Source: Escherichia coli (GTDB lineage Bacteria > Pseudomonadota > Gammaproteobacteria > Enterobacterales > Enterobacteriaceae). Taken from it: a stretch of 64,000 nucleotides of DNA. The notes below the pieces were generated by a model that had not been told where the DNA came from, made no database searches, and saw only the letters and a list, made by a program, of their open reading frames with translations. The DNA lies in NCBI RefSeq assembly GCF_003334315.1, contig NZ_QOWR01000025.1; one strand, given 5' to 3'. Below, piece by piece: positions 38,433 through 45,652 of this stretch (the stretch's first letter is position 1; each line of letters begins with the position of its first letter). Both the position numbers and the translations under genes were made by a program.

Positions 38433-39857
38433 TTACTGCATTAACAGGTAGATGGTGCTGTCGCCGCGCTGAATGTTGAGTGCCAGCACAGACGGTTTGC
38501 TGTCGAGAACTTTACGCAGTTCAGCGATGTTTTTCACTGCCTGCTGGTTCGCGCCAATAATCACATCACCTTTCTTCAGGCCGATCTGCGCAGCCGGAGT
38601 GCCCGTTTTCACGTTGTTCACTACCACGCCCTGATCTTTGCCTTTGTTGCTCATCTCAGCGCCTTCAATGCCGTTGAAGATGGAGCTGGAATCAACCTGA
38701 TTCTGGCTGCTCTGCTGCAGTTCCAGGTTCACGTTAACCTGCTTACCGTCGCGCAGTAAGCCCAGGGTCAGTTTGCTGCCTACCGGCATAGTACCCACCT
38801 GAGCACGCAGTGCGGCAAAGCTGCTGATCGGCTTACCGTTCAGTGAGGTGATCACATCACCCGCTTTAATGCCCGCTTTTGCAGCGGAGGAATTAGGCAG
38901 AACCTGGCTTACGAAAGCACCGCGCTGGGCGTCAACTTTCATCGCTTTCGCCAGTTCGGAGTTCAGCTCAGTCCCCATAATACCCAGCTCACCGCGTTTC
39001 ACCTGGCCGTATTCCACCATCTGCGAGGTCAGGTTTTTCACCATGTTACTCGGGATAGCAAAACCGATACCGATGTTGCCGCCGTCCGGTGCGAGGATCG
39101 CGGTGTTGATACCGATCAGTTCGCCGTTCAGGTTAACCAGCGCACCACCGGAGTTACCACGGTTGATCGCTGCATCGGTCTGGATGAAGTTTTCGTAGTT
39201 TTCGGCATTCAGGCCGCTACGCCCCAGCGCAGAGACAATCCCGGAAGTTACCGTCTCGCCCAGACCAAACGGGTTACCAATCGCTACGGTGTAATCACCC
39301 ACGCGCAGTGCATCAGAATCCGCCATCTTAATTGCGGTCAGGTTTTTCGGGTTCTGGATTTGGATCAGCGCGATATCAGAGCGCGGATCTTTGCCAACCA
39401 TCTTCGCGTCGAACTTACGGCCATCGCTCAGTTGAACTTTAATGACCGTCGCGTTATCAACAACGTGGTTGTTGGTGACGACATAGCCTTTATCGGCATC
39501 AATGATGACGCCGGAACCCAGCGCCATGAATTTCTGTTGCTGGCCGCCACCATTACCGCCCTGGCCACCCTGGCAGAACGGAGAGCTCTGGAACGGAGAA
39601 CCTTCCTGGCAGAACGGAGAATCATCACCGAAGAACTGCTGGAAATTACGCGGCATACGCGGCGTATTAACGGTTGTGCTACCTTCTACGTTAATGCTGA
39701 CCACTGAAGGCATCACCTTTTCGAGCATCGGTGCAAGGCTTGGCATCTGCTGGGCTGTCGTTGCTGAAGAAGTCTCAGCCGCCGTTGCAGAGAGCGGAGA
39801 TAACGCCAAACCTAAACTCAGAGCCAGTGCACTCAGTGCTAATGTGGTTTTTTTCAT
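38433..39857 (-). CDS. degP: Periplasmic serine endoprotease/chaperone DegP (HtrA)
   Basis: 474 aa ORF; signal peptide, catalytic GNSGGAL and two PDZ domains. Confidence 0.97.
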   Translation of the reverse strand: MKKTTLALSALALSLGLALSPLSATAAETSSATTAQQMPSLAPMLEKVMPSVVSINVEGSTTVNTPRMPRNFQQFFGDDSPFCQEGSPFQSSPFCQGGQGGNGGGQQQKFMALGSGVIIDADKGYVVTNNHVVDNATVIKVQLSDGRKFDAKMVGKDPRSDIALIQIQNPKNLTAIKMADSDALRVGDYTVAIGNPFGLGETVTSGIVSALGRSGLNAENYENFIQTDAAINRGNSGGALVNLNGELIGINTAILAPDGGNIGIGFAIPSNMVKNLTSQMVEYGQVKRGELGIMGTELNSELAKAMKVDAQRGAFVSQVLPNSSAAKAGIKAGDVITSLNGKPISSFAALRAQVGTMPVGSKLTLGLLRDGKQVNVNLELQQSSQNQVDSSSIFNGIEGAEMSNKGKDQGVVVNNVKTGTPAAQIGLKKGDVIIGANQQAVKNIAELRKVLDSKPSVLALNIQRGDSTIYLLMQ

Positions 39858-39902
39858 GTATTTCAGTCTCGATTAACAGATAACGCAAAATTGCTGTGTT
39901 CT

Positions 39903-39930
39903 TCAGATTCGTTTTATAGCCTGAAGTTCC
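39903..39930 (-). promoter_or_regulatory. Sigma-E (RpoE) promoter of degP
   Basis: Minus strand reads GGAACTT-N16-TCTGA; CpxR-like GTAAA half-sites lie just upstream (about 39950..39977). Confidence 0.75.
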
Positions 39931-39986
39931 GAACTAAAGTTTCTGCAAAAGGTAAAAATTTATTGTTCGTCTTTACAAAAGCCTGG

Positions 39987-41504
39987 TTATTGTTCTACGG
40001 CCATCAGACGTCGGTATTCATCCCACGCATAGAGGTCGGTCATACCGCTGATATAATCCTGCAGCAGGCGGCAACGGTAATAATATTCCCATAGCGGAAA
40101 CTCAGGAGAATCTGACGGTAATTTACTGACAGCCTCGACATAGGCCAGCCGATGGCGCGTCGAGAGTTTGTGGAATAAGCGCGATTCAATAGGGAAACGT
40201 TTCACCCGTTCTTTTTCTACCAGTTCAGTAAAGTCTGATAACGACAGGCTTAATAAAGGACGATAAATCTCTAATAATCCGCTAATGACCCGATAGCCCT
40301 GCAATTCAAGCTGCTCGACATCTGGATGGCTAAACACATGTTTTACAGCGACATTTTTATATAGCTTAAGAAGATCGCTGCATTCGCTGGCATCTTCCAA
40401 TAATGCATGATTAAACGTTCCGGCGAAAATCGCAGGCAGATTATCAATAAATCGTTGTGCCGCGTAGGGTACCAGTTTATTTAGGGTGTTTACCCGTAAA
40501 TACATAAAAAACTGATCTTCCGTACTGCGGCTTAAACTATTTGAGCGTGATTTTTCCCAGGCATTTTCAACCACCAGCGAAAAGAGCGAACCTTTCTCAT
40601 GCTGGCCCCACGCTTCGTGCAAATGATGATAAAGCTGCTCAACGGTAAATATTCTTTTCTCTACCGCATCTTCAAGGTCTGCCACACAATAGGAGATGTC
40701 GTCGGCAGCTTCCATAATCCACGTTAATGGAAAACGACTGTAAAGCGCCAAATTAAGTTCTTTACGCAACCGGGCAATATAGGCTTCTTCAGAAAGATAA
40801 TAACCCGGCTTTTTCATTAAATAGTGATGTGTCTCAGGCGTTTCGCCACGCCACCACGCCGGACGGGTATATTTTAAAATACCGCCAACCTGTGCCCAGG
40901 TGAGATTCATCCGCATCAATGTATGCACCAGGCGAATGCCTTGTGCATTCCCCTCAAAATGACATAAGTCCTGACGAATCTTGCGCCGCAGCTCGTTAAG
41001 CGGTTCTTCCCCGTCCCGTAAACGTAGTGCCGCCACGCTGCAGCGATCGTCAGTCAGAGGCTGGCTTTCGGCATCTTCCGGGTGCAAACGTTGGCGAAAC
41101 CAGTCATTTATCGCCGCTTCGCCAAAATGACCAAACGGCGGATTGCCGATATCGTGCATCAGGCATGACATCTCAACAATGCTTTCAAAGGGACCGGTCA
41201 GTTCATCCAGGCCGTATGCTTCCAGTAATTTAAGCTCTTTCAGACGGCTTAAAATTTCTTTGGCGATGTAGCGCCCCACCTGCTGGACTTCCATCGAGTG
41301 GGTAAGACGCGTGCGCACGGCGGCATTGCGCTCCAGTGGAAAAACCTGGGTCTTTTGTTGCAGACGACGAATTGCCGGAGAGTTGATGATACGCCCGCGA
41401 TCGCTCTCGAAGATCCGCAGGATCTCATGTTCGGTTTTAACGCCCTGCGGTGAACGGTAACGACGATGCCAGTTTATTTTTTTTCGGAAATCAATCTGTG
41501 CCAT
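39987..41504 (-). CDS. dgt: dGTP triphosphohydrolase
   Basis: 505 aa ORF beginning [23 protein letters not shown]-domain. Confidence 0.96.
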
Positions 41505-41587
41505 GTCCTCTCCCGCGTGAGAAATACGCTTCCCCGTAAGCGCATGGTAAACTATGCCTTCAAATCGGGCTTATCGCGAGTAAATCT

Positions 41588-42286
41588 ATGAAAATCGGCA
41601 TCATTGGTGCAATGGAAGAAGAAGTTACGCTGCTGCGTGACAAAATCGAAAACCGTCAAACTATCAGTCTCGGCGGTTGCGAAATCTATACCGGCCAACT
41701 GAATGGAACCGAGGTTGCGCTTCTGAAATCGGGCATCGGTAAAGTCGCTGCGGCGCTGGGTGCCACTTTGCTGTTGGAACACTGCAAGCCAGATGTGATT
41801 ATTAACACCGGTTCTGCCGGTGGCCTGGCACCAACGTTGAAAGTGGGCGATATCGTTGTCTCGGACGAAGCACGTTATCACGACGCGGATGTCACGGCAT
41901 TTGGTTATGAATACGGTCAGTTACCAGGCTGTCCGGCAGGCTTTAAAGCTGACGATAAACTGATCGCTGCCGCTGAGGCCTGCATTGCCGAACTGAATCT
42001 TAACGCTGTACGTGGCCTGATTGTTAGCGGCGACGCTTTCATCAACGGTTCTGTTGGTCTGGCGAAAATCCGCCACAACTTCCCACAGGCCATTGCTGTA
42101 GAGATGGAAGCGACGGCAATCGCCCATGTCTGCCACAATTTCAACGTCCCGTTTGTTGTCGTACGCGCCATCTCCGACGTGGCCGATCAACAGTCTCATC
42201 TTAGCTTCGATGAGTTCCTGGCTGTTGCCGCTAAACAGTCCAGCCTGATGGTTGAGTCACTGGTGCAGAAACTTGCACATGGCTAA
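41588..42286 (+). CDS. mtnN: 5'-methylthioadenosine/S-adenosylhomocysteine nucleosidase
   Basis: 232 aa ORF beginning [25 protein letters not shown]. Confidence 0.96.
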
Positions 42287-43079
42287 GTCACTGTTCAGGG
42301 CGCTGGTCGCCCTGTCTTTTCTTGCGCCACTGTGGCTCAACGCCGCGCCGCGCGTCATCACGCTTTCTCCCGCCAACACTGAACTTGCCTTTGCCGCCGG
42401 GATCACGCCGGTTGGGGTCAGCAGCTATTCCGACTATCCTCCACAAGCGCAAAAGATTGAGCAGGTTTCCACCTGGCAGGGGATGAATCTGGAACGCATT
42501 GTCGCGCTGAAACCCGATCTGGTGATTGCCTGGCGTGGAGGTAATGCCGAGCGGCAGGTTGACCAGCTGGCTTCGCTGGGAATAAAAGTGATGTGGGTCG
42601 ATGCGACAAGCATTGAACAAATTGCCAATGCGTTACGTCAACTGGCCCCCTGGAGTCCGCAACCAGACAAGGCCGAACAAGCCGCGCAATCCCTGCTGGA
42701 TCAGTACGCGCAATTGAAAGCGCAATATGCTGATAAACCTAAAAAACGTGTTTTTCTGCAATTCGGCATTAATCCGCCATTTACCAGTGGAAAAGAGTCG
42801 ATTCAGAACCAGGTACTCGAAGTTTGTGGCGGAGAAAACATCTTTAAAGACAGCCGGGTTCCCTGGCCGCAAGTTAGCCGCGAACAGGTGTTAGCACACT
42901 CGCCACAGGCGATTGTCATTACAGGCGGACCGGACCAAATTCCTAAAATCAAACAATACTGGGGTGAACAGCTCAAAATTCCCGTTATTCCTCTCACGAG
43001 TGACTGGTTTGAACGTGCAAGCCCACGTATTATCCTCGCTGCACAACAGCTCTGTAATGCGCTTTCACAGGTAGATTAG
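42279..43079 (+). CDS. btuF: Vitamin B12 periplasmic binding protein BtuF
   Basis: ORF-track 42252..43079; start set at [22 protein letters not shown] (signal peptide), 266 aa; overlaps mtnN 3' end by 8 nt. Confidence 0.92.
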
Positions 43080-43116
43080 CGCCTGACCTTTTCAGGTGCT
43101 CAGTGGGGATTGAACA

Positions 43117-43740
43117 ATGCTCGTCTATTGGCTGGATATAGTCGGCACAGCGGTATTTGCCATCTCCGGCGTTTTGTTAGCCGGAAAATTGCGTATGGAC
43201 CCTTTTGGTGTTCTGGTACTGGGCGTGGTAACCGCAGTAGGCGGCGGGACAATTCGCGACATGGCGCTGGATCACGGCCCGGTATTTTGGGTGAAAGATC
43301 CCACCGATCTGGTCGTTGCAATGGTCACCAGCATGCTGACCATCGTGCTGGTGCGCCAGCCAAGACGCTTACCAAAATGGATGTTGCCGGTGCTGGACGC
43401 CGTTGGTCTGGCGGTGTTTGTCGGCATTGGCGTGAATAAAGCCTTTAATGCGGAAGCCGGTCCGTTAATCGCGGTTTGTATGGGCGTCATTACTGGCGTT
43501 GGCGGCGGGATCATTCGTGATGTTCTGGCCCGCGAAATCCCCATGATTTTACGTACAGAAATCTACGCAACTGCCTGTATTATCGGCGGTATTGTCCACG
43601 CTACGGCTTATTACACATTTTCCGTACCACTGGAAACAGCCAGTATGATGGGCATGGTCGTGACGCTATTGATTCGGCTGGCGGCTATTCGTTGGCATCT
43701 TAAGCTACCGACGTTTGCGCTGGATGAGAATGGGCGTTGA
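43117..43740 (+). CDS. yadS: UPF0126 inner-membrane protein YadS
   Basis: 207 aa multi-TM ORF with two internal repeats each carrying a Gly-rich motif (GGGTIRD / GGGIIRD). Confidence 0.88.
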   Translation: MLVYWLDIVGTAVFAISGVLLAGKLRMDPFGVLVLGVVTAVGGGTIRDMALDHGPVFWVKDPTDLVVAMVTSMLTIVLVRQPRRLPKWMLPVLDAVGLAVFVGIGVNKAFNAEAGPLIAVCMGVITGVGGGIIRDVLAREIPMILRTEIYATACIIGGIVHATAYYTFSVPLETASMMGMVVTLLIRLAAIRWHLKLPTFALDENGR

Positions 43741-43750
43741 AGAGAGAAGA

Positions 43751-43775
43751 TGTGCCGGATAGTTTATCCGGCACA
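43751..43775. other. Perfect hairpin between convergent yadS and erpA
   Basis: tgtgccggat-agttt-atccggcaca, 10-bp stem. Confidence 0.55.
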
Positions 43776-43786
43776 TGAACAACAGA

Positions 43787-44131
43787 TTAGATACTAAAGG
43801 AAGAACCGCAACCGCAGGTGCTTTTCGCGTTCGGGTTGGTCACGATGAAACGAGAACCTTCCAGACCTTCGGTATAATCAACGGAACCGCCGACCAGATA
43901 TTGCAGGCTCATCGGATCAACCACCAGGCCAACGCCCTGTTTTTCGATGGTCATATCGCCTTCGTTCACCTGATCATCAAAGGTGAAACCATACTGGAAG
44001 CCGCTGCAACCGCCACCGGTGATATACACGCGTAATTTCAGATTCGGGTTATCTTCGTCAGCGATCAGGCTTTTAACTTTGTTGGCTGCTGCGTCGGTAA
44101 ACTCCAGCGGCAGTGCTACGTCATCACTCAT
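43787..44131 (-). CDS. erpA: Iron-sulfur cluster insertion protein ErpA
   Basis: ORF-track 43787..44176; start set at [11 protein letters not shown] to give 114 aa; C-terminal CGCGSSF motif. Confidence 0.93.
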
Positions 44132-44212
44132 ATTTTGCTCCAAACGACATCGGCAATTGGGCAAATTATAACCCAATAATAATCGCCATTATCTAATACC
44201 CTGGTATTTCGT

Positions 44213-45652
<1,440 letters not shown>

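Follow-up and report, generated by a model that had tools for sequence, protein, structure and literature searches.

The degP control region of a K-12-like Escherichia coli strain combines a sigma-E promoter, an upstream CpxR site and a predicted thermometer leader

We analyzed a stretch of Escherichia coli DNA of 64 kb (the window hereafter), in which dgt and degP follow each other on the minus strand and are separated by a gap of 129 bp. The features of the locus are collected in Table 1. As originally predicted, rseP, bamA, skp and nlpE are all located within the window, and so is rcsF. Positions 2..44741 of the window are collinear with K-12 positions 176000..220740, with 99.908% identity, 40 mismatches and one 1-nt gap; the 40 mismatches in 44.7 kb rule out that the window is K-12 itself. 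Over the whole segment from dgt to degP, genes included, a single base differs from K-12, inside dgt, and the DegP protein is identical. The 451 nt around the degP promoter are 100% identical to K-12 MG1655, and the same 451 nt are present with at least 99% identity in 5408 of 5425 complete E. coli genomes, with annotated dgt and degP. For the 129-bp intergenic region, at least 99% identity to the window was observed in 1389 of 5425 E. coli genomes.

Table 1. Features of the dgt-degP region, in window coordinates; distances in the fifth column are relative to the main degP start (+1)
Feature	Position	Strand	Sequence	Distance from +1	Remarks
dgt	39987..41504	-			ORF list
dgt stop codon	39987..39989	-			ORF list
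degP coding sequence	38433..39857	-			474 aa, serine endoprotease DegP; ORF list and annotation
Sigma-E -35	39924..39930	-	GGAACTT	-33..-27	7/7 match to consensus
Sigma-E spacer	39908..39923	-	CAGGCTATAAAACGAA		16 nt; contains TATAAA at 39918..39913
Sigma-E -10	39903..39907	-	TCTGA	-10..-6	3/5 match to consensus TCAAA
Main degP start	39897	-	A	+1	K-12 180844; two genome-wide start maps
Proximal CpxR box	39962..39976	-	GTAAAGACGAACAAT	-79..-65	centre -72; listed as 'degP1'
Invariant pentamer	39952..39956	-	TTTAC	-59..-55	GTAAA on the plus strand
Distal CpxR box	40112..40126	-	GTAAATTACCGTCAG	-229..-215	inside the dgt coding sequence; listed as 'degP2'
Weak upstream start	40072	-			inside dgt; K-12 180669; 215-nt leader; Cappable-seq
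degP leader, HtrA RNA thermometer	39852..39897	-			Rfam RF02700

The original prediction placed an exact sigma-E consensus, GGAACTT-N16-TCTGA, at 39930..39903 of the minus strand. Both the coordinates and the spacing were confirmed: GGAACTT (39930..39924) is followed by a 16-nt spacer and by TCTGA (39907..39903). Scans with consensus and mismatch patterns found the complete motif once in the 64-kb window, compared with 0.02 matches expected from shuffled sequences (2 of 100 shuffles contained a match). When the pattern was relaxed, the number of sites was at the chance level, both in a first scan (6 found, 3.06 expected) and in a second one (8 found, 7.07 expected). Hence the signal resides in the complete motif. 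Of the window's sites matching the relaxed pattern, the one at degP alone has a perfect -35 element.

The sigma-E consensus derived from 28 mapped promoters (Rhodius et al., 2006) consists of the -35 element GGAACTTTT and the -10 element (T/C)GGTCAAAA. According to the same work, a 16-nt spacer is strongly preferred within a range of 15-19 nt, the discriminator is 5 or 6 nt long, the start is a purine, the T, the C and the final A of the -10 element TCAAA matter most, and A/T-rich peaks are found at -48/-49 and -57/-58 (Rhodius et al., 2006). The degP promoter thus has the optimal spacing for sigma-E and an exact -35 element, and its -10 element is off consensus at two of five positions; the claim of an exact consensus holds for the former element and has to be dropped for the latter. 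A further sigma-E-like sequence, GGAACTAAAAGCCGTAGATGGTATCGAA, lies at 23722..23749 of the minus strand, inside rseP and about 900 nt upstream of bamA. It has one mismatch in the -35 element, a 16-nt spacer and the -10 element TCGAA, and may act as an internal promoter through which sigma-E transcribes bamA-skp.

Two genome-wide maps of transcription starts cover degP of K-12. In the supplement of Kim et al., 2012 (PMC3415461), the sole degP start in MG1655 is 180844, with a leader of 40 nt, and the upstream sequence printed there ends with ...GGAACTTCAGGCTATAAAACGAATCTGAAGAACA. The same position is listed in the Cappable-seq data with a read score of 41.6 (Ettwiller et al., 2016, PMC4782308). 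After conversion of coordinates (K-12 position = 220741 minus window position), this start falls on the A at 39897, 6 nt past the last base of TCTGA, leaving a 5-nt discriminator (AGAAC). A start about 7 nt past TCTGA had been predicted; two independent data sets place it 6 nt past this element, and the prediction is thereby not refuted. The name given to the promoter in the original prediction, degP P3, did not survive: P3 comes from Salmonella nomenclature (htrAp3), and our literature search found no paper that uses 'degP P3'.

Upstream of the sigma-E site, the minus strand carries the predicted pentamers GTAAA (39976..39972, -79..-75) and TTTAC (39956..39952, -59..-55) and, between them, a third pentamer, ACAAT (39966..39962, -69..-65). 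GTAAA and TTTAC had been described as resembling CpxR half-sites. Two of the 41 known CpxR sites compiled in Table S1 of PMC9600279 (citing De Wulf 2002) belong to degP, and the listed proximal box pairs GTAAA with ACAAT as a direct repeat and excludes TTTAC (PMC9600279). The distal box of the list falls outside the interval covered by the original prediction. GTAAA is therefore the recognized half-site, and the inverted TTTAC is not its listed partner. The proximal site is GTAAA-N5-ACAAT, and ACAAT matches GTAAA at two of five positions.

How much the pentamers tell by themselves differs strongly between the single element and the pair. A lone GTAAA is uninformative because the window contains 171 copies of it, whereas the inverted arrangement GTAAA-N15-TTTAC occurs once (0.05 expected). 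The window as a whole is enriched in GTAAA, with 171 copies compared with 106 +/- 9 in dinucleotide-preserving shuffles. This excess is probably a codon-usage effect and calls for caution when single pentamers are read as CpxR half-sites.

A scan with a CpxR weight matrix, proposed as a check in the original prediction, gave a weak score for the proximal box. With a matrix built from 39 published sites, both degP sites being left out, the proximal box reached 6.2 bits (rank 149 in the window); known sites have a median score of 14.1 bits. For the distal box the score was 12.4 bits (rank 11), and for the box on the TTTAC side, read on the plus strand, 0.2-1.1 bits. Within-window sequence statistics do not establish a CpxR site at degP. 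Among the best matrix scores in the window are also GTAAATCTATGAAAA at 41580..41594 of the plus strand, in the dgt-mtn intergenic region (16.9 bits), and GTAAAACCTGGTAAG at 20380..20394 of the minus strand, upstream of skp, which is a listed known CpxR site.

To extend the comparison beyond E. coli, the Enterobacteriaceae were scanned at one genome per species, yielding 80 degP loci from about 25 genera; the upstream regions of 78 of these loci were aligned together with the window (79 sequences). Both GTAAA (-79) and TTTAC (-59) are invariant in all 79 sequences. The middle pentamer is NCAAT in all of them (ACAAT in 46, CCAAT in 23 and TCAAT in 10). The -35 element is GGAACTT in 62 sequences, GGAACTA in 12 and TGAACTT in 5; the -10 element is TCTGA in 67, TCTTA in 6 and TCTCA in 3, so that the relatives keep TCT and the final A and have G, T or C as the fourth base. 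The spacer is 16 nt long in 76 of 79 sequences, and the distance from TGTAAAG to the -35 element is 47 nt in 65 and 46 nt in 14. Flanking intergenic positions show 51-77% identity across the aligned sequences, with a mean identity to the window base of 0.64 at -54..-34, 0.51 in the discriminator and 0.52 from the dgt stop to -80. The promoter elements and both pentamers are thus kept while their neighbors drift, which provides independent evidence of function.

The alignment also revealed variation around these elements. At spacer positions 39922-39921 (positions 2-3 of the spacer), the window and K-12 have AG, and the two other E. coli genomes and the one Escherichia sp. sequence examined have GC; GGAACTT is accordingly followed by CAGG in the window and K-12 versus CGCG in those three sequences and in many other genera. 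About seven extra bases (e.g., TAGTCAC) follow TCTGA in Klebsiella, Kluyvera, Pseudocitrobacter, Atlantibacter and others, placed between the -10 element and the ACACAGCAA block (loci such as L021, L044, L060, L070, L077 and L078); the mapped Klebsiella start falls within this insertion, 8 nt past the -10 element. In Intestinirhabdus alba (L011), a G+C-rich insertion of about 82 bp, unique among the aligned sequences, separates the dgt stop from the conserved TTGTAAAG block and thus sits immediately upstream of the CpxR elements.

Conservation bears directly on the possibility that the pentamers match by chance, in intergenic DNA rich in A/T, and play no part in regulation. The abundance of GTAAA in the window and the weak matrix score of the proximal box are what one would expect in that case. 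Neither the invariance of both pentamers, set against the identity of adjacent intergenic bases, nor their fixed spacing to the -35 element would be, and the curated compilation of known CpxR sites includes the box. We consider a chance origin extremely improbable and rejected it as contradicted by conservation.

The conserved block GTAAA-N5-NCAAT-N5-TTTAC has mirror symmetry about position 39964; successive elements are spaced by 10 bp and the outer two by 20 bp. Conservation of the inverted GTAAA (-59..-55) is just as strict as that of the recognized CpxR half-site. TTTAC may be contacted by CpxR or may instead be a distal subsite of an UP element. If the latter holds, TTTAC and the A/T tract around it (-64..-55) would form the distal part of an UP element for the C-terminal domain of the polymerase alpha subunit, and the CpxR site would be GTAAA-N5-ACAAT only. 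The A/T-rich peak of sigma-E promoters at -57/-58 is indeed covered by TTTAC, UP-element modeling included degP as one of the sigma-E promoters whose basal activity is measurable, and TTTAC lies outside the published CpxR box and scores close to zero on the CpxR matrix when read on the plus strand. Many A/T sequences would be tolerated in an UP element, yet TTTAC is invariant, its C included, and its exact distances to GTAAA and NCAAT and the mirror symmetry look like protein recognition. We regard the UP element as a possible reading that is nonetheless the less probable one; the complete invariance of TTTAC, including its C, leans toward specific recognition.

One arrangement with specific recognition of TTTAC would be a symmetric three-element CpxR operator, GTAAA-N5-NCAAT-N5-TTTAC, in place of the listed two-pentamer direct repeat. 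If this is true, the operator could be bound by CpxR dimers that face both ways or by CpxR and another factor jointly. As a separate matter, the distal dgt box may serve the start at 40072. We put these readings forward tentatively and consider them rather doubtful. The conserved inverted GTAAA could help to sharpen the picture of how the degP promoter is engaged by CpxR or by the alpha subunit of the polymerase.

Published expression data tie degP to both stress pathways. Overproduction of sigma-E increases degP expression 56-fold; the cpxA24 allele increases it 26.6-fold, and overproduction of NlpE 32.4-fold, or 6.4-fold without cpxR. Overproduction of CpxR alone did not induce degP in the study that reported the 56-fold effect of sigma-E, and its authors suggest that this reflects the dependence of degP on sigma-E. 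Reviews place degP in both the sigma-E and the Cpx regulons, and the core sigma-E regulon lists DegP by name.

CpxR might instead work mainly through other promoters, either a sigma-70 promoter that uses the TATAAA of the sigma-E spacer and starts about 7 nt upstream, or the weak promoter inside dgt. Related species do have additional starts. In Salmonella, three htrA starts are known, with leaders of 40 nt (htrAp3), 47 nt, and 215 or 449 nt, and in the first study the htrAp3 start was detected only under stress (PMC5602114). Klebsiella also has GGAACTT-N16-TCTGA, with mapped starts just downstream; there, a second start precedes the sigma-E-type start by 9 nt (PMC3415461). In E. coli, neither Kim et al., 2012 nor Cappable-seq reports a start of this second Klebsiella type (PMC3415461, PMC4782308). 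The TATAAA at 39918..39913 is retained by 61 of the 79 Enterobacteriaceae sequences and is better conserved than the remaining spacer; it could serve as the -10 element of a sigma-70 promoter that overlaps the sigma-E one, like Salmonella P2 or Klebsiella 207608. It is, however, without an acceptable -35 element, and a sigma-70 scan around degP detected no sigma-70-like promoter on the minus strand. A terminator scan of 39700..40400 gave 0 sites, with no terminator-like hairpin between dgt and degP.

As for the promoter inside dgt, Cappable-seq detected a weak E. coli start at K-12 180669, with a read score of 1.8, about 23 times below that of 180844 (PMC4782308). Its leader has the length of the Salmonella htrAp1 leader, and in the sequence TATTAT is present 7 nt upstream of the start (40085..40080, minus strand). 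The distal CpxR box, which outscores the proximal one, lies just upstream, at -54..-40 from this start. These features suggest a possible small CpxR-responsive promoter inside dgt, and the distal box may serve the weak start and not the sigma-E promoter. Escherichia and a few Citrobacter alone retain the full distal box; its first half is kept in Salmonella and Citrobacter. Between 180669 and 181771, Cappable-seq reports 180844 alone in E. coli (PMC4782308), the position that is also the sole degP start of the 2012 map. The low signal of the upstream start, the restricted conservation of the distal box and the explanation offered by the authors of the CpxR overproduction study likewise speak against a main role of such promoters, which we consider unlikely. 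The preferred reading remains that CpxR acts at the sigma-E promoter through the proximal site.

The original prediction made no mention of an RNA thermometer, although one lies within its coordinates. The leader matches the Rfam family RF02700 (77 bits compared with a gathering score of 52, E = 1.1e-16, model positions 1-46 of 46), and the match begins exactly at the mapped start and fills the 40-nt leader. In the minimum-energy fold, UUUU (39890..39887) pairs with the Shine-Dalgarno sequence GAGA (39870..39867), the C at 39885 is bulged out and the loop has 5 nt; these pairs agree with those of the Rfam model and with the structure described for Salmonella htrA. The hairpin is not more stable than shuffled sequences (z = 0.95); since weak stability is expected of a thermometer, this is little counter-evidence. 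RNAalifold predicted no consensus structure for the aligned leaders, and covariation for the thermometer structure was not significant (77.4% of cells paired versus 76.5% in shuffles). The RF02700 gathering score was reached by 8 of 20 genus representatives. With neither covariation nor excess stability, the assignment rests on the Rfam score and on the Salmonella literature, where the structure of the htrA thermometer was tested and translation was found to be temperature dependent (PMC5602114). By homology, the E. coli degP leader would function as a thermometer.

Taken together, the region is, with a probability of about 0.93, the control region already known for degP (htrA) of E. coli, made up of a sigma-E promoter, a CpxR site upstream of it and a thermometer leader. 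The original description of this envelope-stress control region as intact is borne out by its identity to K-12 over 451 nt and by the retention of its elements across relatives. The present analysis itself establishes the motifs with their conservation, the position of the mapped start, the identity to K-12 and the Rfam match; the dependence on sigma-E and Cpx and the listing of the CpxR boxes are taken from published papers.

An activator box centered at -72 is in a typical class-I position, and we infer both a class-I contact between CpxR and the polymerase at degP and a role for the TTTAC pentamer. In the proposed mechanism, envelope stress would release sigma-E and switch degP on, with sigma-E RNA polymerase recognizing GGAACTT and TCTGA across the 16-nt spacer and initiating at the A at 39897. 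Phosphorylated CpxR would bind the conserved block at -79..-55, including the box GTAAAGACGAACAAT centered at -72, and, from a class-I-type site that shares its face of the helix with the polymerase, would increase transcription further. In this manner degP would integrate the sigma-E and Cpx stress pathways. In the leader, the four U would cover the Shine-Dalgarno sequence until heat melts the hairpin, and translation should then rise.

The degP control region of this K-12-like strain is an ordinary textbook promoter that is already known. A standard, intact region means that degP should show its normal response to envelope stress, through sigma-E and Cpx, as well as to temperature; the result is of use for annotation and adds no new biology.

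Compared with canonical CpxR boxes (GTAAA-N5-GTAAA, as at cpxP, ppiA, psd and yccA), degP shares the GTAAA first half, the 5-nt gap and the location upstream of the promoter. It differs in its degenerate second half (ACAAT) and its low score (6.2 bits versus the median of 14.1), and, beyond the canonical consensus, has an invariant inverted third pentamer 10 bp further on. With the consensus sigma-E promoter it has in common the -35 element GGAACTT, the 16-nt spacer, the 5-nt discriminator, the purine start and A/T-rich upstream sequence; unlike the consensus, it has TCTGA instead of TCAAA and CA instead of TT after the -35 element. Salmonella enterica htrAp3 has the same GGAACTT-N16-TCTGA, the same leader length of 40 nt and the same thermometer hairpin (four U, bulged C, 5-nt loop), and differs in a few bases of the spacer, discriminator and leader. 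Two further starts are documented in Salmonella (47-nt leader; 215- or 449-nt leader), whereas E. coli has the weak 215-nt counterpart alone. The closest likeness is to the degP (htrA) promoter of E. coli K-12, with which the whole intergenic region and degP itself, including the -35 and -10 elements, spacer, start and leader, are identical.
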